DNA of 64,000 bases from an uncultured Clostridia bacterium (GCA_934141445.1 CAKPCF010000003.1:34196-98195); one strand, 5' to 3'; counted from the first letter of the stretch, positions 41,968-62,136 are shown. Notes: generated by a model from the sequence alone, not told the origin. Numbers and translations: made by a program.

Positions 41968-44619
41968 TTATCCATTAAAATGAACACCTTGTTTTGATAT
42001 TGCACCAACTTGAGAATTTAATTCCTGTCTCATAGTATTTATTATATCAGTTTGTGGTTGGCTTGTACTTCCATTATCTCTTGAATTTTCTAATTCTGTT
42101 ATTTTATCATTTAAAGAATTTACAATTTGGTCAACATTGTTCTGTGTTGCATCTTTTATTCTATCCATTTCATTATTTACTTCAGAAATCTTATTGTCAA
42201 GTTCATCTAAGTTTGTATATGTAACTGTTGTAGTTGTCTTTTGAATATCATATTGATGAACTTGTGAGTTTGATGTTTGTTTTGTATCTGCTATTCTGTC
42301 AACCATATCCTCTGGTTCTACATCTGCACTTGAAGCAGTTTTCATTGCATTATATAATTTTGCATTTGCAAATGTTGTCATATATTCTTTCATAGCATCT
42401 TTTATATCACCTAATTCTGATGCAGGCATATTGTTAACAACGTCTCTTCCTAAAACACTTTGCATTGAATTTTCAAATTCTTTGTCAAAATCCATTGTGC
42501 CACCACTTTGAGCCAATTTTATTTGCATATTTGTAGCAATCATTTCTGCCTTTTCTTTGCTTAATCCTTGCATTACACTCTGCATTTCATTTGTAAATTT
42601 ATTTAATTCATTATTGATATTATTTGTATCATATTTTCCATTATCACCCAATTGCTTTACATAAAGCATGTGTTGTAGTTTTTCTTGATTTGTAGTATAT
42701 TCTTGACCGGTTACACTTGTAACACTTTGTAATGAACTAGATGTTTCATTTGACAATTCTCTTTTTGTATGTTTTAAGAACTCATTAGTTGCACCATAAG
42801 CACCCATACCAGTCATAAGTGCAGATAATGCATTACTTGAACTTAAACCATACATTGCAAGACCAGCACTTGCTCCAGCAACTGTAGATATGTATTGTTT
42901 ATCATGTAAATGGGCACTTATACTTCCCTTTGCACCTGATATACCTTTTTTCATTTTTTCTCCGACTAGTTTTCCAACATCTTTACTTAAAACATGTTCT
43001 GCAGAGAATTGTGCACTAGCTTGTTCTTTATATGTATTTTTCTCTTCTTCTGTTAATTGATTCCATTGCTTTCCTTCATTTTGAGCTAATTGTTCAGCTC
43101 TACCTGGATTTCCATTTGAACCTTCTACATAAGCTCTTCTAGCTGCCTCAAATGTTTTCACACTACCACTAACACTTTTATATGCTTTGCTATTTGTTAC
43201 TGTATCAGCAATCTTACTTGGTACTGATGCTACAGCATGTGTTACATTAGAAACTGCTGTTCCACCTTTTACAACTAATCCAGCTGCCTTTCCTAAAGCA
43301 GTGTTTGTACCAGCTACACCTTTTACTTTATTTGCAATACTACTTGTAGCCTTAGAAATCTTGCTAGCAGTTCCACCAAACATATTTCCCATCATCTTGC
43401 CAACACTAGAAGCACTCTTTCCTAATTTACCAGCATTATTAGCTAAAGTTGTAACAGCAGCTGTTGCTGCAACCATATCGGTTAAAGAAGATGCTTTGCC
43501 AAATCCAAAGATTTGTCTGATAATTTTTTCACCATCATTTACGAATTGAATACAAACTATTGCTAAGATACCAGCTGCTAATGTATTTGTTCCAGTAACA
43601 CTTGTAACAAATGTTAAATTTCCAAACATACTATCTAATGAGCTTACTTCTATTAAACTAATTGCAATATTTACAAATGCTAGATACATTATACAATGAA
43701 ATGGTTGTATTAAAATATTATAGCAAAATTCTTTCATCCATGTATTTAATGCCTGTGCTCTTTGGTCACCTATTTTATCTATTGAATATGTAATTGTAAT
43801 TAGTGGTGATATTATAATTAAAAATCCTATTGTAAGCATTCTTTTTAAATACAAGAATAGGAATTTTAGAGTTTGCCATACAATTAAAGCATATACTACC
43901 GTACTTGCAATTCCAGCGAAACCACTAATAGGCGAAACCGAACTTACACCAATCGTAGAAATCCACTGTACAAAATTTCCAACATAATCATCTGCATTTC
44001 CTACTTGTTTTAAAATATCTATCAATACACCATTTATCTTAGTTATAAAAATAATGAAATAATGTAGCAAATATAATAAAGCTAAACTTGATGCCCAATC
44101 AACAAGCATTTTTTTATACATAACTTTATCTTGTGCAACAGTTGATAAAGCCATTCTTATACCTATATAAATCAATATTACTAAAAGGATTACTGTAGCT
44201 ATGATTCTAATTACATAATACCATGTTGCAACTTGTGTTCTAAAATCAAGTATCATACTTGGTACACCAGAATTAAAATTCATAAAATCTATGTCTAATA
44301 ATGGTACTTGATTAAAGAATATTGTAAATGGTGTTACTAATACTCCATCTGAAACGCCACCTAAGCTTACGATACCTGATATTAGTACCTGTGCAGCTGC
44401 ACAGATTGCCACAACACCAACTCTTAATCCCCATGTTGCAAATCCAACAAATGCTCCTAGCAAGTTTGTTAAAAGATTATACATTGTATTAAAAGCATCT
44501 GCTGCAACACTTGTTCCACTAGTAGAACTATCTGTTCCATATACTTGTGTTGTAAAATTGAACAATGTTAAAAATATTAAAAAGCACCCTAAAATCTTAA
44601 AAAGTGATTTTTTCCTCAT
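41968..44619 (-). CDS. VirB6/TrbL-like polytopic membrane protein with long S/T/A/G/K-rich and coiled-coil C-terminal extension (paralogue C)
   Basis: Signal peptide and multiple TM helices. Shares the core motif VATWYYVIRIIATVILLVILIYIGIRMALSTVAQDKVMYKKMLVDW with the 422-aa and 1328-aa proteins. Start placed at ATG 44617-44619 (the track uses an upstream TTG, 44631). Confidence 0.5.
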   Translation of the reverse strand: MRKKSLFKILGCFLIFLTLFNFTTQVYGTDSSTSGTSVAADAFNTMYNLLTNLLGAFVGFATWGLRVGVVAICAAAQVLISGIVSLGGVSDGVLVTPFTIFFNQVPLLDIDFMNFNSGVPSMILDFRTQVATWYYVIRIIATVILLVILIYIGIRMALSTVAQDKVMYKKMLVDWASSLALLYLLHYFIIFITKINGVLIDILKQVGNADDYVGNFVQWISTIGVSSVSPISGFAGIASTVVYALIVWQTLKFLFLYLKRMLTIGFLIIISPLITITYSIDKIGDQRAQALNTWMKEFCYNILIQPFHCIMYLAFVNIAISLIEVSSLDSMFGNLTFVTSVTGTNTLAAGILAIVCIQFVNDGEKIIRQIFGFGKASSLTDMVAATAAVTTLANNAGKLGKSASSVGKMMGNMFGGTASKISKATSSIANKVKGVAGTNTALGKAAGLVVKGGTAVSNVTHAVASVPSKIADTVTNSKAYKSVSGSVKTFEAARRAYVEGSNGNPGRAEQLAQNEGKQWNQLTEEEKNTYKEQASAQFSAEHVLSKDVGKLVGEKMKKGISGAKGSISAHLHDKQYISTVAGASAGLAMYGLSSSNALSALMTGMGAYGATNEFLKHTKRELSNETSSSLQSVTSVTGQEYTTNQEKLQHMLYVKQLGDNGKYDTNNINNELNKFTNEMQSVMQGLSKEKAEMIATNMQIKLAQSGGTMDFDKEFENSMQSVLGRDVVNNMPASELGDIKDAMKEYMTTFANAKLYNAMKTASSADVEPEDMVDRIADTKQTSNSQVHQYDIQKTTTTVTYTNLDELDNKISEVNNEMDRIKDATQNNVDQIVNSLNDKITELENSRDNGSTSQPQTDIINTMRQELNSQVGAISKQGVHFNG

Positions 44620-44641
44620 AACTACCACCAATCTCTCCTAT

Positions 44642-47600
44642 CTATTTTCTTCCTTTTCCAATTTCTTCTATCAATGCTGATATATCTGTCATTGGTCGTT
44701 CTAATCCTGAATTTAATTCTTTACTTTTAATTGTACCATTCTTTCTTCTTTGTGTCACTATTTTTGGTGAATTTTGTCCATTTGTATTTGCTATACCTTG
44801 ATTTGCTCCACTTGCTGTTCTTCTTTGTGCACCATTTCCATTTTGTGCTCCATTTGGAGTAAATAAATTATCTCTTACTGATGTATCTTGTTCACCAACC
44901 CTACTTTCTGGATTATCAGTATCGCCTCTATATTCTCCAAACATTGAATTACCTTTTATCCTATTTAATGAATTAACAACATCTTCCGTATTACGTGGAT
45001 CAAATTCAAGATGTTTAGCTTGTTTTCCTTTTCCCTTAATTTTAGCTGCTCTTAAATTGCTCTTTTCAATTTCAGTTGTTAAGTATGCAAATTCTTGTAC
45101 AGGTTCTGAAACAGTTGAAATTAGTTCCTCTCTTCTTTCTTCGTCTTTTTCTGCTATTACTGCTGCTAACATATCCGCCATATCTTGATGTCTTTTTTCT
45201 TCTATCAATCTTTTCATTTTTTCTGATGTGGCATCGGCAGTATTACTACTTACACCAGTACTATTTAATCTAGTAAAAGCTTGATTTCTTGCTTGTACAG
45301 CAGTATTTACAGTTTCTTCAATACTCTTTCCACCTAATACTGGGCGTGCAACTTTTCTTGTATCATCTGATGGATTAACTTGTCCAAACATTGGTGTATT
45401 ATCTAATTTATTTTTTGGAGTTCCACCAGAATTAGAAATTCTTTTCTTTTTCTCTGATAGATTATCCAAAACAGATGTAGTCTTATTAGGTACAGCTTTT
45501 ACCCAATTTTCTAGTTTTTGTGTTGCTCTTTCTTGTACATCATTAACATTCAAATCTCCAGCTGTTTTTATATCATTTTCATCAATTATTTCTTGGAAAG
45601 ATTGTGTTGTAAATTCTTTTACAACCATATCAGCTTTTACTTTTTCAACTCTAGTTTTTAAAGCTTTTACAAGTTCTTGTTTTTCTTCTTTAGTTGCATC
45701 TTTACCTAAAACAATACTTTGTAATTGTTTTTCAATAGCTTCTTCACTTGTATCATTAGTTGTAAAATCAGAAATTGCTTTTTTACTATTAGCTGCTGCC
45801 TCTACAACAGCTTGTTCAATCATTTTATCTGTTACTAAAATAGTTTTATTATTTACATTTACCACTGTAGCTGTTGCATGTTCATCATTACCATCTGATA
45901 CTTGTTTTCTATCTTCATTTGAAAAAGCATTTATTATTTCTTCAGCTGATGCATAATTTTGTGCACTGATTCGAGAACCATTTATTTCACCTATTACATT
46001 TGGATTTTGAATCTTCAATTTCATAAGTTGATTTGCAAATTGCTCTAAAGTCATATTAGCTGCTGCAACTACAACTGGTTCATCAATTTCATCAGTTGTT
46101 TTCTTTTCTTCAAGAGCTTTTGTCATATCTTTTACATCTTGTTCTTTATCAGTTGTTGGAACATACAATCCATTAACTTCAACTGCATTTCCAGTTTCAG
46201 CTACTGCTTCTCTATGAATCTTGTCTTTATCATCTTCAACTTTACAATACTCAACAACTCCAGATTTAATTGCATTTTTCAAAGCAACTCCAAGTACACG
46301 TTCTTCTAATCTATATGTTGCATCATTTATCTCTGAACTTGTATTTAATAGTTTTTCTCTTTGTGTATAACCATAACCGCCACTTCTTGTATATCTATAA
46401 CCTTCTGGTTTATTCTTTCTTGTTTGTGCTCCTCTTATTAAACTTGCACCAAAAATATTTCCAGTTGCTATTACAGAGCCTTTTGCAAGAGCTTTTACAA
46501 ACTTTTGATGTTTTGTTGATATTTCTTTTACTATATATTCATCTTTAGCAGACTCTACTTGTACACGAATTTGTCTTGTAACATTTTGTACATCTTCATT
46601 AGTAAATCCAGCATCATTTTCTATACCACTGCTTGGCATATATTCTGCTTTTCCACTCTTCTTGATATAGTCATAAGTTTTAGATATTGAAGCAAGTGAG
46701 CCAAACATTGTTGAAAAACCAATAACTGGATTTTCTACAGTTGTTGGTATAGATGTTACCATTCCCAAAAATCCTGTTAACAAGTTTTGAATTGCATTTA
46801 CTTCATTTCCTATTATCTCTTTATCAGTATCATTCATTCCAGTTAAAGCTTTTAAATTAACATTATCAGCAATTCTTTTCTTTAAGCTATCTTCTGTTAA
46901 TTCATCTCCTGAAAACAAACTTTCAGCAAATGATAATTTCTTTCTTTCTACATATTTAACTTTACCATTCTCATCTGTAACATATCTGCCTTTATATTTA
47001 GTTCTAAATCCTACATATTTTCCTTTTTCTTCATCATATTCAACATATTTCCTTGGGTCAAATACTTCTTTAATTTTTTGATTCATTGCAAAAGTTCTAG
47101 CAAATTTAGTTTTAGAAAATTTATCATTTAATTGTTTTAATTTTTCTTCTTCTATTTTTTGAGTATCTTGTGCATCTTTCTTTTCTGTTTCAAGAACTTT
47201 AATTTCATCTTCTGAATCTTCATTCTCTTGTTCTAGTTTAGCTATTTCAGCTTCAGCTGCATCTATATCTTTTTCTAATCCTTTAAGAATTTTTTCTTTT
47301 TTCTTTTTTATTTTAGCCTTATTTTCTCTAATTTTTTTCTTATTATTTTGTATTTTCTTATCTTTTGCGTCTACAGCTTCTCTTGCCTTATTTACATTCA
47401 TTCCTTGGTCTACAATTTCTTTTACATCTTCATTATTTTCAAAAGATTGGTATTCTTCTTCTGTAAAAGCTGTTTCATTTCCAGCAATATCTTTGTGCAT
47501 TTCTTCATTTTTTGGATTATTCTCCATGCTATTCATTCTCCATGCCATAACTCCACCAAAAGCTTTTCTAGCTGGATTATAAAATAACTTTTCTCTCTCC

Positions 47601-48628
47601 CAATTAGCAATATTTCTTATTGCTTTTCCACCAATGTATGCAGTTGTTAAGCTCTTGAAATTATTCATTAACTCTCTACCAACATTTCTGTCTGCAATAT
47701 CATCTACTAAGCTTCCACTTCCACCAAATGCAAATATCTTTCTGAAGATTTTATCTGCATTACTCATAAAGCTTAATAACATAAACGCAAGTAACATACC
47801 TGAAATTGAGTTTAAAGATAATTGTAAAGCATTCATTACAAATGTTACATAAATAATAGCATGTACAGATTGAAGAATAACATTTAAAAAGTATTCTTTA
47901 ATCCATGTTGAAAATATTTTTGTTTTTCCTGATAAAACTTTGTTTAAAGCATAAGAAACAGCAACAGCTGGTGCCATTAAAGTTAGTACAGCCACTGTTA
48001 AATATCTCTTAAAATATATAAATACAAATTTGTAAGAATAATATACTAAATATGCATACATAACAAGACCAGATGTACCATTTACAAGTTTTGGATCATA
48101 GGCTCTTGTTCTAATCGTATCATAAATACTTACTTCTATATCTTCATCTGTCTTTTGAGTATTATCTCGATTATCAGATGTTGTTAATGAACCATACTCA
48201 GATGGTTTAGCATTATATACTGCAGCTGCTGTATCTTGAACCATTTCTACTAGTAATTCGTTCATATCTATAATAAATAACATTATATAATGTATACCAA
48301 AAACTAATACCATACCTGCAGCCCAATCCATAAGCAATCTTTTATAATATGCTTTATCAGATGCTACTGATGATATTGCTAACTTAATACCAATAAAAAT
48401 CAGTACCAATAACATAATTACTATTGATACTACTCTTATAATATAATACCATGTTGCAATTGCTTCTTTTAAAATAAGTACTGTATTTATTCCTTCACTT
48501 TCTGTTGAAGATGCTCCACCTTCACTTGCTTGCATTGGCTCAGCAAAAGAAAAAGTAGGTAAAATAACAATAATTGCAAAAACTACTATTATAAATAAAA
48601 TTATATTTTTTTTACTACTTCTCATCAT
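44642..48628 (-). CDS. VirB6/TrbL-like polytopic membrane protein with about 1000-aa K/E-rich coiled-coil extension (paralogue B)
   Basis: Signal peptide, core motif IATWYYIIRVVSIVIMLLVLIFIGIKLAISSVASDKAYYKRLLMDW and about 6 TM helices. These are followed by a long hydrophilic region with KKIQNNKKKIRENKAKIKKKKEKILKGLEKDIDAAEAEIAKLEQENE. Confidence 0.5.
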   Translation of the reverse strand: MMRSSKKNIILFIIVVFAIIVILPTFSFAEPMQASEGGASSTESEGINTVLILKEAIATWYYIIRVVSIVIMLLVLIFIGIKLAISSVASDKAYYKRLLMDWAAGMVLVFGIHYIMLFIIDMNELLVEMVQDTAAAVYNAKPSEYGSLTTSDNRDNTQKTDEDIEVSIYDTIRTRAYDPKLVNGTSGLVMYAYLVYYSYKFVFIYFKRYLTVAVLTLMAPAVAVSYALNKVLSGKTKIFSTWIKEYFLNVILQSVHAIIYVTFVMNALQLSLNSISGMLLAFMLLSFMSNADKIFRKIFAFGGSGSLVDDIADRNVGRELMNNFKSLTTAYIGGKAIRNIANWEREKLFYNPARKAFGGVMAWRMNSMENNPKNEEMHKDIAGNETAFTEEEYQSFENNEDVKEIVDQGMNVNKAREAVDAKDKKIQNNKKKIRENKAKIKKKKEKILKGLEKDIDAAEAEIAKLEQENEDSEDEIKVLETEKKDAQDTQKIEEEKLKQLNDKFSKTKFARTFAMNQKIKEVFDPRKYVEYDEEKGKYVGFRTKYKGRYVTDENGKVKYVERKKLSFAESLFSGDELTEDSLKKRIADNVNLKALTGMNDTDKEIIGNEVNAIQNLLTGFLGMVTSIPTTVENPVIGFSTMFGSLASISKTYDYIKKSGKAEYMPSSGIENDAGFTNEDVQNVTRQIRVQVESAKDEYIVKEISTKHQKFVKALAKGSVIATGNIFGASLIRGAQTRKNKPEGYRYTRSGGYGYTQREKLLNTSSEINDATYRLEERVLGVALKNAIKSGVVEYCKVEDDKDKIHREAVAETGNAVEVNGLYVPTTDKEQDVKDMTKALEEKKTTDEIDEPVVVAAANMTLEQFANQLMKLKIQNPNVIGEINGSRISAQNYASAEEIINAFSNEDRKQVSDGNDEHATATVVNVNNKTILVTDKMIEQAVVEAAANSKKAISDFTTNDTSEEAIEKQLQSIVLGKDATKEEKQELVKALKTRVEKVKADMVVKEFTTQSFQEIIDENDIKTAGDLNVNDVQERATQKLENWVKAVPNKTTSVLDNLSEKKKRISNSGGTPKNKLDNTPMFGQVNPSDDTRKVARPVLGGKSIEETVNTAVQARNQAFTRLNSTGVSSNTADATSEKMKRLIEEKRHQDMADMLAAVIAEKDEERREELISTVSEPVQEFAYLTTEIEKSNLRAAKIKGKGKQAKHLEFDPRNTEDVVNSLNRIKGNSMFGEYRGDTDNPESRVGEQDTSVRDNLFTPNGAQNGNGAQRRTASGANQGIANTNGQNSPKIVTQRRKNGTIKSKELNSGLERPMTDISALIEEIGKGRK

Positions 48629-48648
48629 TCTACCTCTCTTTCTTAAAA

Positions 48649-49122
48649 TTACTCTGCATCAGATTCTTCATTATTTGTTGTATCTGAAAAATTAAATATA
48701 TTAACATCAAAAATAGGAATTTTATTAAAAACTATTTTTTCAATTGTTACTCTATTATCAACATCTGTTATACTTTGAAATACATCAAAAGCTAAAAGTT
48801 TATCACTTGTTGCCATATCTGTTTTACAAATTGCATCAATTGTTCTAACCAAAACCCATTCAAATAACTCAATCCAACCTACAAACACAGCTCTAATGCC
48901 CATTGTCATAATTCCTAAAATCCAGTCTGCAATTCCTGCTAAAATATCTACTATTGTCTTTCCTCCTTTAGCTGAAACTGAATATGAAGAAGTTGATGTA
49001 CCTTTATAATAAAAATCATCAATCTTTCCAGCTGCATAAGTAGGAGCTGTGGCAAGGAATGTTGAAAATGTTGTTACAATTATTGCAATTACTAAAATTT
49101 TTACTAATATTGTTTTTTTCAT
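48649..49122 (-). CDS. small secreted/2-TM protein equivalent to the N-terminal module of the VirB6-like paralogues
   Basis: Signal peptide, hydrophobic hairpin, then IVFNKIPIFDVNIFNFSD. This matches TVFNEIGLFNIDYFDFSD (422-aa protein) and FFNQVPLLDIDFMNFNSG (887-aa protein). Confidence 0.5.
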   Translation of the reverse strand: MKKTILVKILVIAIIVTTFSTFLATAPTYAAGKIDDFYYKGTSTSSYSVSAKGGKTIVDILAGIADWILGIMTMGIRAVFVGWIELFEWVLVRTIDAICKTDMATSDKLLAFDVFQSITDVDNRVTIEKIVFNKIPIFDVNIFNFSDTTNNEESDAE

Positions 49123-49150
49123 AATTTACTCCTTTCCACTTAATCTTTAA

Positions 49151-50695
49151 TTAAAAATTTATTTGAATTTCTTTATTATCATATTTTAATAAATTATTAT
49201 AACAGCTTTCAATTTTAAATTCTTGTTCACCTGTTAAAATCTTTCCTCTTTTATCTGCCTGTAAATCATAATAATATATGCCTTTTTTATTTATACTATA
49301 TATAAAAATGCTATCACTAAGCCATGTAAAAGTATCTATTGCTTCATTTATTTCTCTATTTGGTCTTGTATCGTCTTTTGAAACAAAATACATTGTTTCT
49401 ATTATATTGTTTTCATCTTTATCTGCATAAAATCCATATAAACTGCTATATAAAGTATTACTTTCAGTTTTATTTTCATCTATAAATTTATTACAATTTG
49501 CTAACAAGCTATTTGCTTTTGATACTCTTGCAACTTCATCTTCAAATACATTATCTACTTGCATTTGTGCTAAACATTCTGGCATATCCAAGCATTTAGA
49601 TGATTGAAAACTTGTCATTTTCACATTATTATATAGAATAATTGCATTAGTATTTTCGTAATTGCATTTTACAGAAATTCCTTGTAGTGGATATGTTATA
49701 TAGAAACTATTCTCCTTAACTATATATTCACTATAATCGCTCCATAAATATGTAAGCTTGTTCATAAATTGATATATATCTGTATCTCCATTTGAAAATT
49801 CTTCTACTAAATTTATAAATTCTTCATACTCAACATTATCAATTCTATAGATTGAAATTTCATCTTTAGTAACAAATATATAAAAATCTTTTCCTTTATA
49901 ACCATAAACACCATTTTCCGTATCTTCAAAAGCTGGTGTTCCCAGTTTTGTTTTTGCAACATCAAAAGCCTCTCTTACCATTATACCACTAATTACAGGA
50001 TTTGTGTAGTTCTTCGTAAAAACAATATTGTATATTTTTTGATCTAGTTTTCTTATTTTTAATCCTTTTTCTGTATATTGTTCATATTTTTGAAAAATGC
50101 TATCATAATTTCCTATATTCAAATTAAAATATGACCAATTATTATCTAGTAAATTTCTTAGCTCTTCAGCATTGACTTCAAATATAGTTTCTTCAATTGC
50201 CTTATAATCTTTTAAACTAATTTGTGACTTAATATAAGTAAAATAATCTTCAATTCCATTTATATAAAATTTGCTGATACTATTGTTAGCACAAATAACA
50301 CTAACTGTTATATTATTTTTTTCATCTATAATTCTAAAATTTTGAAAATTTAAGACACTTGCAGAAAATTGTATAAGTCTTGTATAAAATAATTCATTTA
50401 TATTATCATCATCTTCATAAGGTATCTCTGAAAGAGTTGCATAAATATCTACACTATAATCTTTTTCAATACTTTTTTCTTGTTTTATAAAAGTACAATT
50501 ATAATATTTTAATACATCTTCTATTGTTTTAAATGAATTTATATCTATTTCATTTAATTCAGTATTATCCGAAAAATCAATATTTGAAATTGCATAATAA
50601 GTAACAGCTAATGATATTACTACACAAAATAATATTATTAGCATTTTTTTATCATTATTTTGATTATTATACTTTCCTTTTTTCGAATTAAACAC
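49151..50695 (-). CDS. N-terminally anchored extracytoplasmic protein, paralogue of 50707-51930
   Basis: One TM. Shares blocks with its neighbour (DVLKYYNCTFIKQEKS / LLEDYGCVFIKEVKS; GYKGKDFYIFVTKDEISIYR / GYRTKDLYVFVYEDEISAYG). Confidence 0.5.
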   Translation of the reverse strand: MFNSKKGKYNNQNNDKKMLIILFCVVISLAVTYYAISNIDFSDNTELNEIDINSFKTIEDVLKYYNCTFIKQEKSIEKDYSVDIYATLSEIPYEDDDNINELFYTRLIQFSASVLNFQNFRIIDEKNNITVSVICANNSISKFYINGIEDYFTYIKSQISLKDYKAIEETIFEVNAEELRNLLDNNWSYFNLNIGNYDSIFQKYEQYTEKGLKIRKLDQKIYNIVFTKNYTNPVISGIMVREAFDVAKTKLGTPAFEDTENGVYGYKGKDFYIFVTKDEISIYRIDNVEYEEFINLVEEFSNGDTDIYQFMNKLTYLWSDYSEYIVKENSFYITYPLQGISVKCNYENTNAIILYNNVKMTSFQSSKCLDMPECLAQMQVDNVFEDEVARVSKANSLLANCNKFIDENKTESNTLYSSLYGFYADKDENNIIETMYFVSKDDTRPNREINEAIDTFTWLSDSIFIYSINKKGIYYYDLQADKRGKILTGEQEFKIESCYNNLLKYDNKEIQINF

Positions 50696-50706
50696 TAAAT
50701 TACTCC

Positions 50707-51930
50707 TTAATCAATTTCATTTGCTCTACGTTCTTTTTCTAAATTATATAGTGCATCTTCTGTTGAAACTAATGTTATTTTTCCCTCTGTAATATATCTT
50801 TTAGTTGTAGCTGTAAAATAATAATTTGAATACAACTTTATTCCTATTGGATTGTTATTTTCTATATCAATCATTACTCCTATAGCTGGATATGATAGAT
50901 GTAATCTTCCACTATCAGCATCATATTCAAACTCTTCATAACTTTGCCATAATGCTGTTACCTGTTTTACAAATAAATCTAAATTTCTATTTTGAATATA
51001 ATCACTTAAATATGTTTCAAATTTTGTATGTTCATAATAGCTATATCCATAAGCAGAAATTTCATCTTCATAAACAAATACATATAAATCTTTAGTTCTA
51101 TATCCAAGCATTCCTTCTGAAACACTACCAAAAGCATTATCAGGATATTCAGTTTTTACAACCTTTAAAGCTGTACCAACTTTTATATCATGTAATACAT
51201 TTTCTTCAAAATTTGATAAGAATACAATATTTCTAACTTTTCCAGCAGAAACTCTTGCTTTAATAGTTCTATTCAAATAATAATTATATCTCTCATCAGC
51301 TGTACTTCCTTCAGAGTTTCCAAAATCACTTGAAATAAACATATTATTGTTAACTAATTTAAGAAGAATATTATATGTAGTTGGTATTGACTGATATTTA
51401 GCTATTTCGGTATTTTTTTCTACTTCAACATATAAATCACCATCTAATTTATCAAAATAATTATTTTGGTTATTTATTTTATATGATAATTCCCCTTTTT
51501 CCAAATCGCAATTTATTTCTATCTGTATGTCTTTGTTAGAATCATATAAGTAAAATCTAGTTACAGATAATTTTTTTGAGCAAGCATTTATTAAACTTTC
51601 AAAATACTCTCTATTATTTGTTCCATCTTCATTATATAGATTTTTACCAAAATACAAATAAATTGCTTCTGTTGGTGACTTTACTTCTTTAATAAAAACA
51701 CAGCCATAGTCTTCTAATAAAGTTTTCATATTGCTATATGTAGCACTATTATCATAAACAGAATTTTCTAAATCTTGTTTATTTACTTGTTGATTTTCCA
51801 GTTTCTGTTTATTCTCTTCTTTTCTTATAATTACCAATAAAATAGAGGCTAATATAAATAGTATTATAAAACTAACTATAATAATTATTTTTATTACTTT
51901 GTCTGTTTTCATATACTTTTTATATTTCAC
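50707..51930 (-). CDS. N-terminally anchored extracytoplasmic protein, paralogue of 49151-50695
   Basis: One TM (IIIIVSFIILFILASILLVII); shared blocks as listed for the 514-aa neighbour. Confidence 0.5.
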   Translation of the reverse strand: MKYKKYMKTDKVIKIIIIVSFIILFILASILLVIIRKEENKQKLENQQVNKQDLENSVYDNSATYSNMKTLLEDYGCVFIKEVKSPTEAIYLYFGKNLYNEDGTNNREYFESLINACSKKLSVTRFYLYDSNKDIQIEINCDLEKGELSYKINNQNNYFDKLDGDLYVEVEKNTEIAKYQSIPTTYNILLKLVNNNMFISSDFGNSEGSTADERYNYYLNRTIKARVSAGKVRNIVFLSNFEENVLHDIKVGTALKVVKTEYPDNAFGSVSEGMLGYRTKDLYVFVYEDEISAYGYSYYEHTKFETYLSDYIQNRNLDLFVKQVTALWQSYEEFEYDADSGRLHLSYPAIGVMIDIENNNPIGIKLYSNYYFTATTKRYITEGKITLVSTEDALYNLEKERRANEID

Positions 51931-51942
51931 CTCCTACATTAT

Positions 51943-53211
51943 TTAATGTTTTCCTTTAGGTTTTCCAATAGCATTCAAGTGATCTATTGTTTTACTATTA
52001 TTTAATCCAAATATATTTCTTACCATTTTTTCAGCTGATGGTATTGCCATAAAGAATAACAATCCAAACATTGGAGCAAACTTTACAATTTCTCCTGCTG
52101 TAAATGCAAATATTATATATAAAATTGCATGTATTGGTTGAATAAATATATGTATAATCAATTCTTTAAACCAAGCACTAAATGCCTGTGCTTTATTATC
52201 TCCCATTTTATCAATTGGATATGTTACTGTTATAAATGGAGATATAACTATTAGGAATCCTAGCATAATTGTTCTTTTCATATACAATAAGAAAAATCTT
52301 AAATGTGAAAACGCAACACACCAAAGCATTAAAGTTAATATCATAAGCTGACTACCAGAAGATGTAAATAGCTTAACCATTAAATTATTTACAAAATCTT
52401 GCTCAAAGCTTTCTGCACCTGCAGAACTTATTGCAATTTTTATTTTATATGTTATATCTACTAATAATTTTCCTAGTACCATTATTGCTTGAATAATGTA
52501 TTGTAACATAAATAATATGATTATTGATTCAACCCATGCTATAAGCATCTTTTTATATTTTGCTCTATCTGAAGCTACTGTTGACATTGCCATTCTAATT
52601 CCAACATAAATTAAAACTAGTAATGAAATTGCAAGTGACAATATTCTAGCTATATAGAACCATTTAGCAACATTTTCTTTTATACTAATCATAAATGTTG
52701 GCACTGGAACATTAGTATCTTCAGCATCACTTACTCCACCAAAAAAATTATATTTTTTTACCGTATCACTAAAATCAAAATAATCGATATTAAATAATCC
52801 AATTTCATTAAATACTGTTTTTTCTATAGTAAATGAAAACTTATTTTGCGAAGTATTTAATGTATTTAAAATATCTGTACCACTAGCACTAACAACTGTT
52901 AATAAAATTTCTGATGTAAGTGGTATTATATTAAGTAGCATACACACAATTCCTAATACAGCATTTAAAGCAGAACCTGTTGCTGAAAATATGTCAAAAT
53001 TTTGTGTTTTCCCTGTTCTTGGATCAGATGTACTACCTTCATACACTAAATCATTTATCATGTTATTACTATATGCCATATTCTGCTGTCCAACTTTTGG
53101 AATTTTACTTGTTGCAGCATCTGTTTCAGCAGTTTCAGCATAGCAATAACTAGTAAATATGAAATTAAACAATATTAGCACACATATAAGTGACCATAAT
53201 ATTCGTTTCAT
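51943..53211 (-). CDS. VirB6/TrbL-like polytopic membrane protein (paralogue A, minimal form)
   Basis: Signal peptide, extracytoplasmic N-domain, core motif VAKWFYIARILSLAISLLVLIYVGIRMAMSTVASDRAKYKKMLIAW, further TM helices and the block YPIDKMGDNKAQAFSAWFKE (compare YSIDKIGDQRAQALNTWMKE in the 887-aa protein). Confidence 0.55.
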   Translation of the reverse strand: MKRILWSLICVLILFNFIFTSYCYAETAETDAATSKIPKVGQQNMAYSNNMINDLVYEGSTSDPRTGKTQNFDIFSATGSALNAVLGIVCMLLNIIPLTSEILLTVVSASGTDILNTLNTSQNKFSFTIEKTVFNEIGLFNIDYFDFSDTVKKYNFFGGVSDAEDTNVPVPTFMISIKENVAKWFYIARILSLAISLLVLIYVGIRMAMSTVASDRAKYKKMLIAWVESIIILFMLQYIIQAIMVLGKLLVDITYKIKIAISSAGAESFEQDFVNNLMVKLFTSSGSQLMILTLMLWCVAFSHLRFFLLYMKRTIMLGFLIVISPFITVTYPIDKMGDNKAQAFSAWFKELIIHIFIQPIHAILYIIFAFTAGEIVKFAPMFGLLFFMAIPSAEKMVRNIFGLNNSKTIDHLNAIGKPKGKH

Positions 53212-56881: not shown

Positions 56882-57274
56882 TTAGAATTTTTCTACAATT
56901 GAAATAACTATCTTCCAAATGAAATATGCTCCAAAAATAACAAACCCTGATACAAGTAAACCAATTAGTTGTTGCTTTAATTTAGCTTGACCTTCTGGAG
57001 TAGCAGTAATATATTTAATTCCCATATATAAAGTAACTGCAACTAAAATACCAGCACCAATAGTTGTTAAAATAGAACCTAAGTCAACTAAATCTTCAAA
57101 AATATTTGCTCCATTTACATTACCTGCTCCAGTTTGCCCTTTATTCAAAAAAGTTTGTGTTTGGTTTTGCATCTCACTTAATGTTAGAGCTTCTACTTTT
57201 GATGTATTTACTAATGATAAACTTATTATAAAAAATGCTATCAATGTAATTAAAACTTTTTTTGTTATTCTCAT
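56882..57274 (-). CDS. VirB2/TrbC-like pilin-type protein, paralogue P1 (divergent; first gene of the long operon)
   Basis: Signal peptide ending VEA, a variable segment, then a two-helix hairpin LGSILTTIGAGILVAVTLYMGIKYITATPEGQAKLKQQLIGLLVSGFVIFGAYFIW. Confidence 0.6.
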   Translation of the reverse strand: MRITKKVLITLIAFFIISLSLVNTSKVEALTLSEMQNQTQTFLNKGQTGAGNVNGANIFEDLVDLGSILTTIGAGILVAVTLYMGIKYITATPEGQAKLKQQLIGLLVSGFVIFGAYFIWKIVISIVEKF

Positions 57275-57318
57275 TATTGTTCCTCCACATATTATTTCAT
57301 TTAGACAATTATAATTTT

Positions 57319-57347
57319 ATTATAAAGAATTATTGTACATTTTTCAA
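57319..57347 (-). promoter_or_regulatory. sigma-A-type promoter of P1 and the long T4SS-like operon
   Basis: Minus strand TTGAAA (complement of 57342-57347), exactly 17 nt, TATAAT (complement of 57319-57324). Confidence 0.6.
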
Positions 57348-57507
57348 CAGATTTCAAGTAAAATATATATTTTTAATCGAAATGTAATATAGTTTTTTTG
57401 TAATATTTTTGTTAATTTTAAATACTAATTTTTATTTTCTTACGCATACCTAAAAAATTTTTTAATAAAGAATAATTTCATATTTAATTCATAAAAAATA
57501 TTATACG

Positions 57508-57539
57508 AAAAAAGATATGTTAATTAAAACATATCTTTT
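57508..57539 (-). terminator. probable terminator after P2
   Basis: Stem aaagatatgtt(57511-57521)/aacatatcttt(57528-57538) with a 6-nt loop; a short U-tract follows on the minus-strand RNA. Confidence 0.45.
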
Positions 57540-57543
57540 GAAT

Positions 57544-57924
57544 CTAATCTTGATTTCCTAAAACTCCATTTGTAAAATTAGCAACTAAGGCAACTAAATT
57601 CACACCAGCAAATAGTAAAATACAACCAATTACAATTGGCATTGCTTTATTTTTTATAGTAGCTTTTTCTTCAACACTTGATACCATATATTTAGCTCCA
57701 AGTATTGTAACCGTAATAACTGCAATTGCTGTACCACCTAATTGTAGATATCCAATAATATCATTTAAAATTGCATTTACACCTGTATTCGTGCCACCAC
57801 TAGTATCTAACTTTGATACATTCTTCATTGACTCAAGGTCTAATTCAAATCCTGCTGCATTTACATTTACAGCATATATCAAGATAAAAAATATTGTTAA
57901 TGTAATTACAAATATTTTTTTCAT
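57544..57924 (-). CDS. VirB2/TrbC-like pilin-type protein, paralogue P2 (divergent)
   Basis: Signal peptide ending VNA, a variable region, then the hairpin GGTAIAVITVTILGAKYMVSSVEEKATIKNKAMPIVIGCILLFAGVNLV. Confidence 0.6.
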   Translation of the reverse strand: MKKIFVITLTIFFILIYAVNVNAAGFELDLESMKNVSKLDTSGGTNTGVNAILNDIIGYLQLGGTAIAVITVTILGAKYMVSSVEEKATIKNKAMPIVIGCILLFAGVNLVALVANFTNGVLGNQD

Positions 57925-57953
57925 AATCTATCATTCCTTTCTTAAGTTATATT

Positions 57954-58337
57954 CTATTCAACTTTTATGCTATTGTCTGCAAAATCTCTTATTATTGTTA
58001 CTAGGAAACTAGCTCCCATCATTACGACAGCACCTATAACATATACTGTTGCACCTTTTTTGATTTCTGCTCTATCATTTGGAGATGAAACCATATATTT
58101 AATTGCAAGAACTGTTAACATTATAATAGCAATTGCAGCTGTTGCAATTCTTACGGCATCAAGTATTCCAGCAAATAAATTTGTAACTTCATTACTTCCT
58201 TGTAAATTAGATCCACTTGAACCACCAAAACTACTAGTAATCTCAGAACCACTTACAGCAAAAACTTGTGAAAAAATTGCAAATATAAATAAACTTATTA
58301 CTAATAAAATACTTATTTTTCTTATATATTTTTTCAT
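57954..58337 (-). CDS. VirB2/TrbC-like pilin-type protein, paralogue P3
   Basis: Signal peptide ending VFA, an S/G-rich variable segment, then the conserved AIAIIMLTVLAIKYMVSSPNDRAEIKKGATVYVIGAVVMMGA. Confidence 0.62.
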   Translation of the reverse strand: MKKYIRKISILLVISLFIFAIFSQVFAVSGSEITSSFGGSSGSNLQGSNEVTNLFAGILDAVRIATAAIAIIMLTVLAIKYMVSSPNDRAEIKKGATVYVIGAVVMMGASFLVTIIRDFADNSIKVE

Positions 58338-58399
58338 ATAAAATCATTCCCTTCATTTTAATATAAGGTTAGATATTTCCTTTATACACTATTAAATTT

Positions 58400-58428
58400 A
58401 TTATAAACTATTTAAATATTTTTTTCAA
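58400..58428 (-). promoter_or_regulatory. sigma-A-type promoter of the P3-P2 unit
   Basis: Minus strand TTGAAA (complement of 58423-58428), 17 nt, TATAAT (complement of 58400-58405). Confidence 0.6.
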
Positions 58429-58516
58429 CATCAGAATTTAAAATTTATCAAAACCTTTTCTTTTACTGCGTTTTTCTACATATTTTTTATTTTCATAACA
58501 TATATGTCATTTTATA

Positions 58517-58525
58517 TGGTATAAT
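58517..58525 (+). promoter_or_regulatory. extended -10 promoter element for the plus-strand membrane-protein gene
   Basis: TGgTATAAT at 58517-58525, 27 nt upstream of the ATG, with a GGAGG RBS at about 58542-58546. No good -35 element. Confidence 0.45.
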
Positions 58526-58552
58526 AACTAAAAATTTATTTGGAGGTTTACA

Positions 58553-60157
58553 ATGAAAAAAATATCAAAAGATAAAATATTTTTTATTTTTGCATGCTTA
58601 GCAATTGCCTTTTTCACAGCAGCATTAGTTCCAAAAACATTTCAAAATGATACTTTTTTCAATATTTCTATTGGAAAATATATTTTAAATAATGGTATTG
58701 ATATGCAAGAACATTTTTCGTGGGTACCAAATCTAACTTATACTTATTCCCACTGGGCATTTGATATAATTATATATCTTTTATACAATTGTTGGAATTT
58801 TACTGGTATCTATGTTTTTACAATTATATTTTCTGCAATTATAGCTGTTACTTTATTTACTCTATTATCAAAAGCATATAAAACTCCTGTTTCTGCTTTT
58901 TTAGTAACAGTTGTTTCTGTCTTCGTAGTAAAAGATGCATTTACAGCACGTTCGCAAATAATATCTTTCTTATGTTTTATAATTGAAATATATTGTTTAG
59001 AACAATTTATAGAGACAAACAAAAAAAGATATCCTTTAATATTAGTTGCATTATCAATAGTTATAGCAAATTTTCATGCAGCAACTTGGCCTTTAATTTT
59101 AGTTTTATTTTTACCATATCTTGCTGCTGGATTTTTCAATCTAATTTCTTGTAAAAATATTTATACTTTTTTAGCTAATTTTAAAGAAAAACAATTACAA
59201 AAATTAGATATAAATTCTTCTAAGGCAACTAAATGCAAAGAAGATATTGAATATTATAAAAAACTAGCAAAAGATAAAATTTTATCTGATGAATCAAAAT
59301 TAAAATTAAGAAATGACTATAACTTTAAAAATTTAATTATTGTATTTATTATAATTTCACTTACAGGTTTAATCACACCAATACATGGAGTTCCTTATAC
59401 TTACATAATAAAATCTATGACCGGAACAAGTAATTTTGAAAATGCAGCTTCAATTGACTATATTAGTGAGATGCAACCAATTATTCCCGTAGGTAGTTTA
59501 GCATTTTTTGTTTTTTTAAGTTTGATTATTTTTACACTAGCATTCATGCCAACAAAAATAAAAGTAGAACATGGATTTTTAATACTAGGACTTTTAATAA
59601 TGACACTATACAGTAGACGCTATGTATATTTATTAGTTCTACTTGGTGCATTTCCAATTTGTGAACTTATTTCACAATGTGTTAACAAAGATACTGAAAA
59701 ACAAATTGAAAATTCTATATTATCATTTGTATTATGTATATGTTCGGTAATCTTTCTACTTGTAAGTATTTTTAATAAACAAGAAGATCCTTATGTAGAT
59801 GAAACAAAATATCCTACAAAAGTGGTAGATTATATAAAAGAAAATATAGATTACAAAAATATGAGAATTTATAATGATTATGATAATGGAAGTTATTTAA
59901 TGCTGAATGATATTCCTGTTTTCATTGATTCTAGACTAGATGTTTATTGTAGTGAATTCAATAATACAGATGTTTTTAAAGATTATATTTATGTAGTCGC
60001 TGGGAAAGTAAATTATGAAAAGATTTTCTCAAAATATGATTTTACACATATTTTATTATATAAAAATGAAATCGCTAATCAATATATTACAAATGATGCA
60101 AATTACAAATTATTATATGAAGATGAATATTTCTCTTTTTATCAAAAATTAAATTAA
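58553..60157 (+). CDS. polytopic membrane protein, possible GT-C-fold glycosyltransferase, inserted antisense within the pilin array
   Basis: 534 aa with about 12 hydrophobic helices. First loop is FQNDTFFNISIGKYILNNG. The C-terminal soluble part MRIYNDYDNGSYLMLNDIPVFIDSRLDVY recalls uncharacterised ArnT/PMT-like families. The assignment is from pattern memory only. Confidence 0.35.
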   Translation: MKKISKDKIFFIFACLAIAFFTAALVPKTFQNDTFFNISIGKYILNNGIDMQEHFSWVPNLTYTYSHWAFDIIIYLLYNCWNFTGIYVFTIIFSAIIAVTLFTLLSKAYKTPVSAFLVTVVSVFVVKDAFTARSQIISFLCFIIEIYCLEQFIETNKKRYPLILVALSIVIANFHAATWPLILVLFLPYLAAGFFNLISCKNIYTFLANFKEKQLQKLDINSSKATKCKEDIEYYKKLAKDKILSDESKLKLRNDYNFKNLIIVFIIISLTGLITPIHGVPYTYIIKSMTGTSNFENAASIDYISEMQPIIPVGSLAFFVFLSLIIFTLAFMPTKIKVEHGFLILGLLIMTLYSRRYVYLLVLLGAFPICELISQCVNKDTEKQIENSILSFVLCICSVIFLLVSIFNKQEDPYVDETKYPTKVVDYIKENIDYKNMRIYNDYDNGSYLMLNDIPVFIDSRLDVYCSEFNNTDVFKDYIYVVAGKVNYEKIFSKYDFTHILLYKNEIANQYITNDANYKLLYEDEYFSFYQKLN

Positions 60158-60181
60158 ATTTTATTTCTATGCACATATAAA

Positions 60182-60221
60182 AATACTGTTGATATATTTT
60201 CTATTATCAACAGTATTTTTT
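60182..60221. terminator. bidirectional terminator between the convergent membrane-protein gene and P4
   Basis: A 13-bp perfect stem aatactgttgata(60182-60194)/tatcaacagtatt(60205-60217), with a T-run to 60221 and an A-run on the 5' side. Confidence 0.7.
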
Positions 60222-60236
60222 ATATTTTTTTAATTA

Positions 60237-60620
60237 CTATGCCTTTATATTTCCTTCTGCAAATTTTTGAATAATTGTTAAAATTCCAGATGCTGCAAAC
60301 ATTACAACAGCTCCAACTATGTAAACAACTGCATATTTTTTTATCTCTGCTTTTTCGTTTGGTGCTGATGACATATATTTAATAGCCAATACAGTTAACA
60401 TTATTAAAGCTACACCAACTGCTACTATTCTTGCAACTTGTAATATTGCACCAACAATATTAGTAGTTGAACTAGCAGCTGCACTATTATCTGTTTTTCC
60501 ATCAATTGCTGATATTTTGCTTCCAAAATCATATCCATCAGCATATACCATTGGCATGAAAGCACTTACAACAGTAGTGAATATAATTATAGACACTAAA
60601 ACTATACCTAATTTTTTCAT
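60237..60620 (-). CDS. VirB2/TrbC-like pilin-type protein, paralogue P4
   Basis: Signal peptide ending VYA, a variable segment, then the conserved VAVGVALIMLTVLAIKYMSSAPNEKAEIKKYAVVYIVGAVVMFAASGIL. Confidence 0.62.
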   Translation of the reverse strand: MKKLGIVLVSIIIFTTVVSAFMPMVYADGYDFGSKISAIDGKTDNSAAASSTTNIVGAILQVARIVAVGVALIMLTVLAIKYMSSAPNEKAEIKKYAVVYIVGAVVMFAASGILTIIQKFAEGNIKA

Positions 60621-60637
60621 ACTTCTCCTCCTAACTT

Positions 60638-61030
60638 CTAACTAGCTGATATATTGCTAGAGAATTTTTCAATTATTTGTAAAATTCCTGCTGCTCCGAA
60701 TAATACAATTGCACCTACTACATATACAACTGCATGTTTTTTAATGGTAGCTCTATCGTTTGGTGCTGATGACATATATTTGATTGCTAATACAGTTAGC
60801 ATTATTAAAGCTACACCAACTGCTACTATTTTTAGTATGTAAAAAACTGCACCTATTACATTACCAACAGAATCTGCTGCAGCTGAATTTCCAGCACCTT
60901 CAATTGAAGATATATCTGGCATTGCACTTCCTTCTGCAAAGACATTACCTTGAAACGCAACTAATACTGTTGAAAAAATTATTAGTGCTATTGCAAGGAT
61001 CATTCCTTTTTTTAATAAAATCTCCTTCAT
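60638..61030 (-). CDS. VirB2/TrbC-like pilin-type protein, paralogue P5
   Basis: Signal peptide ending VFA, a variable segment, then the conserved VAVGVALIMLTVLAIKYMSSAPNDRATIKKHAVVYVVGAIVLFGAAGILQIIEKF. Confidence 0.62.
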   Translation of the reverse strand: MKEILLKKGMILAIALIIFSTVLVAFQGNVFAEGSAMPDISSIEGAGNSAAADSVGNVIGAVFYILKIVAVGVALIMLTVLAIKYMSSAPNDRATIKKHAVVYVVGAIVLFGAAGILQIIEKFSSNISAS

Positions 61031-61053
61031 ACTTTTTCTCCTTTTTTATATTT

Positions 61054-61425
61054 CTATGCTTGCATGTTTGAATTTACAAATTTTTCGATTATCTGTAAAA
61101 TTCCTGCAGCTCCAAATAGTACAACAGCTCCTATTACATATACAACTGCATTTTGTTTTATTGTAGCTCTTTCATTAGCAGAAGAAGTCATGTACTTAAT
61201 TGCTAATACAGTTAACATTATTATTCCAACTCCTACCGCAACAATCTTCATAATATACAACAATGTTCCAGCTGCTGTTTCTATTGAATTTCCAATTTGT
61301 CCACTATTTCCGTTATCAAAAGCTTTAACATTATAATTGTCATTGCTTGCAAAGCTTGGAATAGATAATACAATGCAACTTAATAACAAAAATATTGTAA
61401 CACAACATATCAATTTTTTGCTCAT
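61054..61425 (-). CDS. VirB2/TrbC-like pilin-type protein, paralogue P6
   Basis: Signal peptide ending SFA, a variable segment, then the conserved VAVGVGIIMLTVLAIKYMTSSANERATIKQNAVVYVIGAVVLFGAAGILQIIEKF. Confidence 0.62.
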   Translation of the reverse strand: MSKKLICCVTIFLLLSCIVLSIPSFASNDNYNVKAFDNGNSGQIGNSIETAAGTLLYIMKIVAVGVGIIMLTVLAIKYMTSSANERATIKQNAVVYVIGAVVLFGAAGILQIIEKFVNSNMQA

Positions 61426-61458
61426 ATCAAGCTCCTTTCAAATTGATTCTTATTATAA

Positions 61459-61487
61459 ATTATATAACATATTTACATTCTTTTCAA
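61459..61487 (-). promoter_or_regulatory. sigma-A-type promoter of the P6-P5-P4 unit
   Basis: Minus strand TTGAAA (complement of 61482-61487), 17 nt, TATAAT (complement of 61459-61464). Confidence 0.6.
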
Positions 61488-61631
61488 TATTATATAAATA
61501 CAATTCCATTAAATATTTTATCTTTTTACAATATTTTTTGTCAATAAATTATACTTTTTGTAATCTAAAAGATATATGAGTAAAAATTTATGTTAAATAT
61601 TCTTCAAATATTCATAATTTAAAAACTGCAT

Positions 61632-61658
61632 AAAAAAAGACTCTCCGCAAAGAGAGCC
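61632..61658 (-). terminator. rho-independent terminator directly after P7
   Basis: Minus-strand RNA GGCUCUC-UUUGCG-GAGAGUC followed by U7 (complement of A-run 61632-61638). It lies 17 nt after the P7 stop. Confidence 0.75.
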
Positions 61659-61674
61659 TTTTTTCTTTTCAAAT

Positions 61675-62067: not shown

Positions 62068-62107
62068 GGTTTTTTCCTCCTTTATTTTATACTCATACTT
62101 ATAATTT

Positions 62108-62136
62108 ATTATAAACCTTTTCAGGCTAAATTTCAA
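62108..62136 (-). promoter_or_regulatory. sigma-A-type promoter of P7
   Basis: Minus strand TTGAAA (complement of 62131-62136), 17 nt, TATAAT (complement of 62108-62113), about 40 nt upstream of the ATG. Confidence 0.65.

Follow-up and report, generated by a model that had tools for sequence, protein, structure and literature searches.

The 64-kb window analyzed here (64,000 nucleotides from an uncultured Clostridia bacterium, GCA_934141445.1 CAKPCF010000003.1:34196-98195, positions being counted from its first letter) is a chromosomal stretch with 23-32% G+C from an uncultured small-genome gut Clostridium. It carries a chromosomal type IV secretion/pilus operon, flanked by the housekeeping genes murE, dapF, a penicillin-binding protein gene, ksgA, lgt and mscS. 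Three membrane proteins of this operon, paralogues of 422, 1328 and 887 aa hereafter named S, L and M, are the subject of the present study; their shared core very probably contains a VirB2-type pilin hairpin, and they are likely to hold the position of VirB6 in the type IV secretion system (T4SS). Along the minus strand, seven VirB2-type pilins, a 111-aa gene product with two transmembrane (TM) segments, a 421-aa bitopic protein and a VirB4-like ATPase are followed by S, two bitopic proteins of 407 and 514 aa, a 157-aa open reading frame (ORF), L and M, and beyond M by two further bitopic proteins, two CHAP-containing proteins of ~1390 aa and a G5/glucosaminidase protein. From virB4 through the first of the two ~1390-aa giants, all genes lie on one strand with intergenic gaps of 9-28 nt, S starting 18 nt past the end of virB4, and no terminator-like site was found on the minus strand between 40000 and 57500. 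This bears out the co-operonic arrangement proposed in an initial annotation made from the sequence alone. Its assignment of the operon to a T4SS also holds, given the seven pilins, the PrgI/VirB3-size gene (111 aa), the VirB4 match to NF045971 and the CHAP/glucosaminidase hydrolases. The operon strand encodes no polytopic proteins other than S, L, M and the 111-aa VirB3-size protein.

S, L and M share a core of ~260-290 aa. BLASTP aligns S with M at 33% identity over 306 columns (E 5e-47), S with L at 28% over 290 columns (E 3e-39) and L with M at 33% over 280 columns (E 1e-44), so that the common core described in the initial annotation is essentially certain, and every motif quoted there recurs in the ORF translations. 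The main block reads VAKWFYIARI..LVLIYVGIRMAMSTVASDRAKYKKMLIAW, IATWYYIIRV..LVLIFIGIKLAISSVASDKAYYKRLLMDW and VATWYYVIRI..VILIYIGIRMALSTVAQDKVMYKKMLVDW, one version in each paralogue, and the second motif is present as YPIDKMGDNKAQAFSAWFKE and YSIDKIGDQRAQALNTWMKE. Structurally, the core has six hydrophobic segments, made up of a two-helix pilin hairpin and four further long hydrophobic helices, the latter carrying the invariant motifs Y-P/S-I-D-K-x-G-D and I-Q-P-x-H. Beyond a conserved amphipathic helix (E-K-x-x-R-x-I-F-G), the proteins continue as tails of ~20 (S), ~1020 (L) and ~500 aa (M), hydrophilic in L and M, in keeping with the extensions of 0, ~1000 and ~500 aa first reported. At the N-terminus, S and M possess a cleavable signal peptide followed by an acidic segment with a hydrophobic helical stretch, an N-terminal module (N-module) marked in both by the motif F-N-x-(I/V)-x-(L/I)-F-(D/N)-(I/V)-(N/D)-x-F-(N/D)-F. 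The true start of M is probably the ATG at 44619, four codons past the TTG that gives 887 aa, since this codon is preceded by GGTGG five bases upstream and aligns with the start of the 157-aa ORF; M would then be 883 aa long. None of the three proteins reaches a curated cut-off in Pfam or NCBIfam, and PHROGs returns no match; annotation pipelines therefore call S, L and M hypothetical and will miss the VirB6 position. The S family comprises 404 homologues, every database entry of which is unannotated ("hypothetical").

Profile comparison reveals that the main block quoted in the initial annotation is a VirB2-type pilin hairpin, which had been overlooked there. A pilin profile of 127 sequences matches the hairpin region (Table 1) of S at an hhalign probability of 96.2% (E 2.5e-9), of the L class at 97.2% (E 4.2e-11) and of the M class at 93.9% (E 1.5e-7), with the pilin consensus GIKYM-A-P-eKAdIKK facing the core consensus GIRMAiSTVASdkAKYKKML. 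A profile hidden Markov model (HMM) built from 86 S orthologues also matches ~130-aa pilin ORFs in related loci (80 loci kept of 376, from uncultured Clostridia, Candidatus Scatovivens and Clostridium sp. CAG:571), and its positions ~110-237 cover the whole mature part of window pilins 5, 4, 7 and 1. Against the 2955 ORFs of the bacterium's own genome, the hairpin region of this HMM matches nothing but S, L, M and four of the seven window pilins (E 1e-6 to 1e-2). In the reverse direction, an HMM of the seven window pilins finds 369 small pilins and 66 S/L/M proteins among the 2061 ORFs of the 80 related loci. To control for membrane-helix bias, the pilin profile was also compared with a profile of TrwI, the VirB6 protein of R388 (TrwI and 29 homologues, all PF04610), giving 0.2%. 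A pilin hairpin as a general property of VirB6 proteins is accordingly rejected, being undetectable in TrwI. The curated pilin family PF18895 itself matches S weakly over aa 178-241 (16 bits against a cut-off of 26.6 bits); the domain is listed for P0022, an S orthologue, and matches 3 of 33 L orthologues (E up to 6e-5). The loop of the hairpin is K/R-rich and the segments preceding it are acidic (net -7 and -5), which argues for the topology of a membrane-resident pilin, with both ends outside and the loop inside. Judged by sequence, helices one and two of the S, L and M cores are thus very probably homologous to the operon's own VirB2-type pilins. At the level of the domain, all three show what characterizes a VirB2/T4SS pilin, namely a two-helix hairpin with a short charged loop and homology to pilins. 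As whole proteins they do not conform to a secreted two-helix protein of about 100-160 aa, having 422-1328 aa and four further hydrophobic helices.

The rest of the core points to VirB6 by context and, weakly, by fold. S, L and M are polytopic, with six hydrophobic segments in the core, and are encoded beside virB4 in a T4SS operon, as would be expected of a VirB6-like protein with its 4-6 hydrophobic helices. The AlphaFold2 (AF2) model of S has a mean predicted local distance difference test (pLDDT) score of 78.8, exceeding 90 over core aa 170-400, and a Foldseek search of the PDB with this model retrieves the TrwI/VirB6 chains 7o3v_G and 7o3v_J (probability 0.80 and 0.77, ~270 columns; target-normalized template modeling score (TM-score) 0.46/0.49, root-mean-square deviation (rmsd) 8.3/7.4 Å). 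The remaining matches inspected for S (rhodopsins, BAR domains, designed repeats) stay at a TM-score of ≤0.24. A model of L (aa 1-800), built from a separate alignment with a core pLDDT of 76-93, likewise finds TrwI (chains 8rtd_L and 8rt9_F, TM-score 0.46, rmsd 7.3-7.5 Å); over both models, the TrwI matches have probabilities of 0.54-0.80 and span 270-290 columns. In the S and L models, the part read by hydropathy as TM3-loop-TM4 is one continuous helix of 43-52 residues, the other helices measuring 35-51 residues, and such long continuous helices fit a TrwI-like stalk better than a classical TM hairpin. The picture is similar in R388, where only two N-proximal helices of VirB6 are in the membrane, the others forming a stalk, according to PMC12857230. 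Overall, the fold of S, L and M is probably related to VirB6, and a VirB6-equivalent role appears likely.

The only curated families that give a sequence signal are proteins from integrative and conjugative elements (ICEs) of Mollicutes. Of the 86 S orthologues, 64 match NF045848 (the MMCAP2_0566 family, best E 3.4e-8) and 30 match NF045889 (the Mbov_0396 family, best E 2e-7). The NF045889 match extends over aa 179-378 and thereby spans helices beyond the hairpin. NF045848 matches the hairpin of M (43990-44244, E 6.7e-4) and pilin 5 (60638-61030, E 0.02) with the same model positions, about 49-134, and the Mollicutes family may itself contain a pilin-like hairpin. Like S, the Mollicutes proteins adjoin a VirB4 of the same subfamily (NF045975). 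Unlike S, L and M, they are ICE-borne and occur in wall-less hosts for which no pilin arrays are described, and the scores lie far below the cut-offs. We take Mbov_0396 to be CDS16 of the Mycoplasma ICE, from its place beside the VirB4-like Mbov_0397, as given by the family name. CDS16 is regarded as a likely VirB6-like component in PMC12857230. Should the two be the same, the S/L/M family would be linked, weakly, to a recognized VirB6-like protein.

Several results weigh against a VirB6 assignment. With an hmmscan E limit of 1, PF04610 (TrbL/VirB6) does not match S, L or M; when the bacterium's own genome is searched in six frames, this family gives only a 13.6-bit match elsewhere (C1:73170-73682, gathering score 25.9 bits). 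Sequence searches of the PDB with S and with the S-family profile returned nothing relevant. The hhalign probability against the TrwI profile is 0.1% for the S-family profile and 0.3% for the combined S+L+M core. For PrgH of pCF10 and Orf15 (Tn916-like), it is 0.2% and 1.0%, with sensitivity limited by single-sequence targets. The Foldseek matches are statistically weak, with E values of 0.65-2.2, none ≤0.001, and TM-scores below 0.5. In the bacterium's own genome, NF045889 and NF045848 score 16.9-18.4 bits, short of their cut-offs of 70 and 90 bits, and the NF045848 match lies mainly in the hairpin and also touches a pilin. In addition, the indications for the side of the membrane on which the tails lie, given below, conflict, charge pointing one way and segment count and helix geometry the other. 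Of the "VirB6-like" label in the initial annotation, what stands is the T4SS operon, the polytopic character, the place directly after virB4, the non-redundant paralogues and TrwI as the best fold match of two of them; membership of the known TrbL/VirB6 family, probed by sequence with PF04610 and with the TrwI, PrgH and Orf15 comparisons, does not.

Table 1. Features of the T4SS operon around S, L and M (positions in the window)
Feature	Position	Strand	Remarks
Seven VirB2-like pilin genes	56882..62157	-	PF18895/PF04956 matches; sequence relatives of the S/L/M hairpins
VirB4-like ATPase, 663 aa	53230..55221	-	Directly upstream of S; NF045971 4e-62, NF045975 4e-59, PF19044/PF12846
S, 422 aa	51943..53211	-	Signal peptide aa 1-25; acidic N-module aa 26-170 with VFNEIGLFNIDYFDF; core aa 171-400; short basic tail
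Pilin hairpin in S, aa 171-251	52459..52701	-	Profile match to pilins
407-aa bitopic protein, between S and L	50707..51930	-	One N-terminal TM; without family match
514-aa bitopic protein	49151..50695	-	One N-terminal TM; without family match
157-aa ORF, detached N-module of L	48649..49122	-	Own signal peptide; hydrophobic helical segment; VFNKIPIFDVNIFNF motif
L, 1328 aa	44642..48628	-	New signal peptide aa 1-29; core aa 48-307; extension aa 308-1328
Pilin hairpin in L, aa 51-122	48263..48478	-	Profile match to pilins
Part of L extension detectable in distant orthologues, aa ~475-735	46424..47206	-	End of coiled-coil hairpin, beta domain, helical hairpin
M, 887 aa from TTG	41968..44631	-	Signal peptide; N-module; core aa 125-387; extension aa 388-887
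Pilin hairpin in M, aa 128-198	44038..44250	-	Profile match to pilins

The two bitopic proteins between S and the 157-aa ORF have no Pfam or PHROGs match, and their NCBIfam matches are all sub-threshold. The gap between S and L is just 1.5 kb in many related loci, and the number of intervening bitopic genes varies.

The N-terminal organization of L differs from that of its paralogues, its core beginning directly after its own signal peptide. L is without the N-terminal module of S and M because this module is encoded separately by the 157-aa ORF, 20 nt upstream. By sequence comparison, this ORF is the detached N-terminal module of L: it is colinear with M aa 5-120 (BLASTP, E 2e-5) and matches the S-family HMM at positions 4-147 (E 6e-13). 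Most related loci have the module fused to L; the split form is confined to the window, its three closest relatives (L001-L003) and L055, and the 157-aa ORF is under strong purifying selection, with a ratio of nonsynonymous to synonymous substitution rates (dN/dS) of 0.052. The split is a recent, genuine gene fission rather than an assembly error, in which L gained a new signal peptide. In 3 of 33 L orthologues, all from a more distant sublineage (L056:12789-17255, L058:12311-15775 and L070:12442-15702), the N-terminal ectodomain contains an NlpC/P60 domain at aa ~80-197 (E 1.5e-8 to 3e-4), so that these proteins are in effect VirB6-like/VirB1-like fusions. The presence there of a peptidoglycan-hydrolase domain confirms that the N-terminal part of L faces the wall. 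As a topology marker for the C-terminal tail, NlpC/P60 was rejected, the domain sitting in the N-terminal ectodomain.

L and M have unrelated tails. In an hhalign comparison of L with M, only the cores align (100%, L 48-303 with M 125-379), and a hydrophobic Gly-rich hairpin common to the tails, or a second pilin hairpin within them, was rejected because both this alignment and the pilin profile hit the core only. Neither tail contains a TM segment (maximum KD19 hydropathy values 1.28 and 1.05), a Pfam domain or a recognizable enzymatic fold. The M extension opens with a basic S/T/A/G/K-rich stretch followed by a helical region. The AF2 model of the L tail starts with helices, followed by an antiparallel coiled-coil hairpin (aa 400-505, pLDDT ~86-94), a small beta domain (aa 529-580) and a helical hairpin (aa 600-659); with Foldseek, it retrieves generic antiparallel coiled coils only (IpaB, colicin R-domains, YscO). 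The tails diverge faster than the cores. They are 69-72% identical where S is 90% identical and 36-40% identical where S is at 64-65%; at an S identity of ~40%, only L aa ~475-735 and a ~45-residue stretch of M are still detectable, the former in about 20 distant loci at 21-27% identity (BLASTP, E 1e-10 to 1e-4). A homologue search with the L tail (aa 330-1328) gave a single match, at 69% identity, its candidate list being filled by low-complexity words. Between the window and L001, the cores have a dN/dS of 0.085-0.091 and the two tails one of 0.28 each (sub-windows 0.14-0.46), the tails evolving about three times faster; these values mark the tails as constrained coding sequence under relaxed selection, with no bulk positive selection.

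The side of the membrane on which the tails lie is close to an even question. In each of the three classes, the first 60 aa past the amphipathic helix are net positive (+3.4 to +4.7), which suggests a cytoplasmic location. The C-terminus of the classical VirB6 of A. tumefaciens is cytoplasmic. Six hydrophobic segments after an outside N-terminus, together with a tight uncharged turn between TM5 and TM6, suggest instead a C-terminus outside, and a TrwI-like long-helix geometry, as modeled, would put everything after the hairpin above the membrane. Confidence in any specific role for the tails is low.

The three paralogues are old. S (370-430 aa), L (1057-2185 aa) and M (560-966 aa) occur in this order, complete within the flank, in 55 of the 80 related loci; in nine distant loci, S is accompanied by just one paralogue, of 441-656 aa. 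A maximum-likelihood tree of 219 cores resolves three clades, with support of 0.993 for S and 1.0 for L. The M clade, for which no node support was reported, spans all M proteins, contains no S or L and takes in the second gene of the two-paralogue loci. The cores have diverged to a similar extent in each clade (1.35-1.53 substitutions per site). S, L and M are three old orthologous groups of non-redundant paralogues. The number of pilin genes per locus averages 5.5 (mode 7) with three paralogues and 2.7 with two; these means are uncorrected for kinship and are not used as evidence.

Of the 201 genomes sampled from the order, 184 carry the family (166 of the 176 of high quality), as do 33 of 33 genera; the genomes measure 0.9-2.2 Mb. 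Outside the order, the genomes sampled from the class gave no match at E ≤1e-6, the five matching genomes all belonging to this order, and no plasmid or phage homologue was found by megablast of 15 kb against plasmids and phages or by tblastn of S against 72,556 plasmids. Such a distribution is that of a core system passed on vertically. In one family of the order (f5, for example G005, G024 and G028), the S profile has 5-9 matches per genome, beyond the three copies.

A VirD4-type coupling protein is encoded on another contig of the same genome (C1:95060-97093, 677 aa, PF02534 9e-83). Its neighbors, read by eye, look like ddl-, HD-domain- and DnaJ-like genes. This orphan lies far from the T4SS operon and may be the coupling protein of the system. 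No PF03432 relaxase was found in the genome, this being the one relaxase family searched. From the placement of the coupling protein, the lack of a PF03432 relaxase and the distribution, we infer a non-conjugative, pilus-forming T4SS of the kind found in Patescibacteria. Other T4SS-related pieces in the genome are a 780-aa membrane-anchored P-loop protein with a TraG-D_C domain (1.4e-9) at C2:40156-42498, and a 290-aa polytopic ORF with the 13.6-bit TrbL match (C1:73035-73907) adjoining a 345-aa TraG-D_C-like ORF (C1:74314-75351); they may be remnants of a mobile element.

Taken together, S, L with its detached N-module, and M would be VirB6-position subunits of a chromosomal, vertically inherited, pilus-forming T4SS, an explanation to which we assign a probability of roughly 0.65. 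They would form a membrane platform or stalk, its subunits oligomerizing above the VirB4 ATPase by analogy with the R388 TrwI/VirB6 pentamer, and free pilins would dock and polymerize on a layer made up of the built-in pilin hairpins. The three paralogues could be mixed within one platform, or each could belong to a distinct one. The tails of L and M would serve as accessory arms specific to the lineage, subject to purifying selection that is relaxed but real, and would be either cytoplasmic scaffolds touching VirB4, the coupling protein or substrates, or arms in the wall zone. Pilins assembling on VirB6 pentamers have been shown or modeled in diderm and monoderm systems (PMC12857230; bioRxiv 10.64898/2025.12.18.695078).

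How far the likeness to VirB6 reflects common origin is the point on which the nearest rival turns. On that account, S, L and M are not VirB6 equivalents at all; they would be pilins grown by the addition of C-terminal helices, acting as membrane-retained anchor or base pilins or as assembly chaperones, and their likeness to TrwI would be generic. In its favor are clear homology to pilins with none to VirB6, a TrwI fold match short of significance and an own-genome NF045848 match confined mainly to the hairpin. Against it, the operon has no other polytopic VirB6 candidate, the NF045889 match reaches past the hairpin, and TrwI is the top sensible match for two independent models when no other inspected match exceeds a TM-score of 0.24. 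We consider this account unlikely, and it largely converges in function with the platform explanation, both ending in a platform that carries a layer of pilins. Somewhat less doubtful, yet still only a tentative possibility, is a reading in which the platform is made from true pilin derivatives: the S/L/M hairpins would be the first pilus layer, as a mixed or stacked ring, a VirB6-type platform having arisen by C-terminal accretion onto a pilin, and the tails of L and M would act as arms, in the wall zone or at the surface, of a non-conjugative machine that contacts hosts or neighbors and that the lineage cannot lose. If true, this T4SS would be the Firmicute counterpart of the essential T4SS of Patescibacteria.

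A conjugative function is improbable. It would make the operon a machine for DNA transfer, and S, L and M extended Gram-positive VirB6 proteins of the conjugative TcpH, ConG and Orf15 type, with cytoplasmic tails recruiting a coupling protein and DNA. MPF_FA systems typically have extended VirB6 proteins of 700-900 aa that include unstructured domains (PMC12857230); the tails here do start with net positive charge, and the genome does encode a VirD4-type protein. Yet that protein sits on a separate contig among genes that by eye look like housekeeping genes, the genome has no PF03432-type relaxase (the search being confined to that family), there is neither similarity to Orf15 nor a homologue on the 72,556 plasmids, and near-universal presence in a single order is the opposite of what a mobile element shows. 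An unrelated transporter or permease family merely located in the operon would account for polytopic proteins that reach no curated cut-off; it is very hard to reconcile with the homology to the operon's own pilins, with a place after virB4 that is fixed in most of the 80 related loci, and with modeled helices too long for a classical transporter fold, and we regard it as highly improbable.

Among known systems, TrwI/VirB6 of R388 (PF04610; PDB 7o3v, 8rt9, 8rtd) is the closest structural comparison. Like S, L and M, it is polytopic, mostly helical and encoded after virB4, it is the only PDB fold that superposes sensibly on both models, its long helices suggest partial membrane residence, and its proposed role is that of a platform for VirB2 polymerization. 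Unlike TrwI, with which they have no sequence or profile similarity, S, L and M possess a signal peptide, an N-terminal ectodomain and a detectable VirB2-type hairpin, and form a set of three co-operonic paralogues, two of them with tails of 500-1000 aa. Extended VirB6 proteins (the Rickettsiales/Ehrlichia paralogue sets, F TraG, and TcpH/ConG/Orf15) resemble them in combining a hydrophobic core with large hydrophilic central or C-terminal domains, whose role is "not yet known" according to PMC12857230, and the Rickettsiales set also resembles them in having several paralogues within one system. The differences are the absence of sequence relation to Orf15, the other members being compared by description only, and a system that is chromosomal and non-mobile in a monoderm host, with a pilin hairpin in the core and mutually unrelated tails. 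S, L and M would on balance be an extended, multi-paralogue VirB6-type platform.

Two further monoderm systems offer parallels. The T4SS of Patescibacteria, chromosomal and apparently non-conjugative, has VirB2-like pilins, VirB3/PrgI, VirB4 and VirB6 (PMC12102498), and so does that of pCF10 with PrgF/PrgH, whose pilins are modeled as assembling on a VirB6 pentamer (bioRxiv 10.64898/2025.12.18.695078). Unlike S, L and M, the VirB6 of Patescibacteria is mostly found by the canonical VirB6 profile, and for neither system do the accessible parts of these sources describe a built-in pilin hairpin or a trio such as S/L/M. What is new relative to the available text of PMC12857230 and bioRxiv 10.64898/2025.12.18.695078 is a VirB6-position protein with a recognizable VirB2 hairpin, a conserved S/L/M trio in a monoderm, and the family itself.

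These proteins touch two open questions of the T4SS field: how VirB6 seeds the growth of a pilus, and what the domains of extended VirB6 proteins do. A platform protein that visibly contains a pilin fold offers a concrete, testable model of pilus nucleation, and three conserved, size-graded paralogues constitute a natural experiment on platform composition. As a core chromosomal feature of a whole order of uncultured, small-genome gut bacteria, with no plasmid homologue, the system points to a function in the lifestyle of these organisms rather than in gene transfer.

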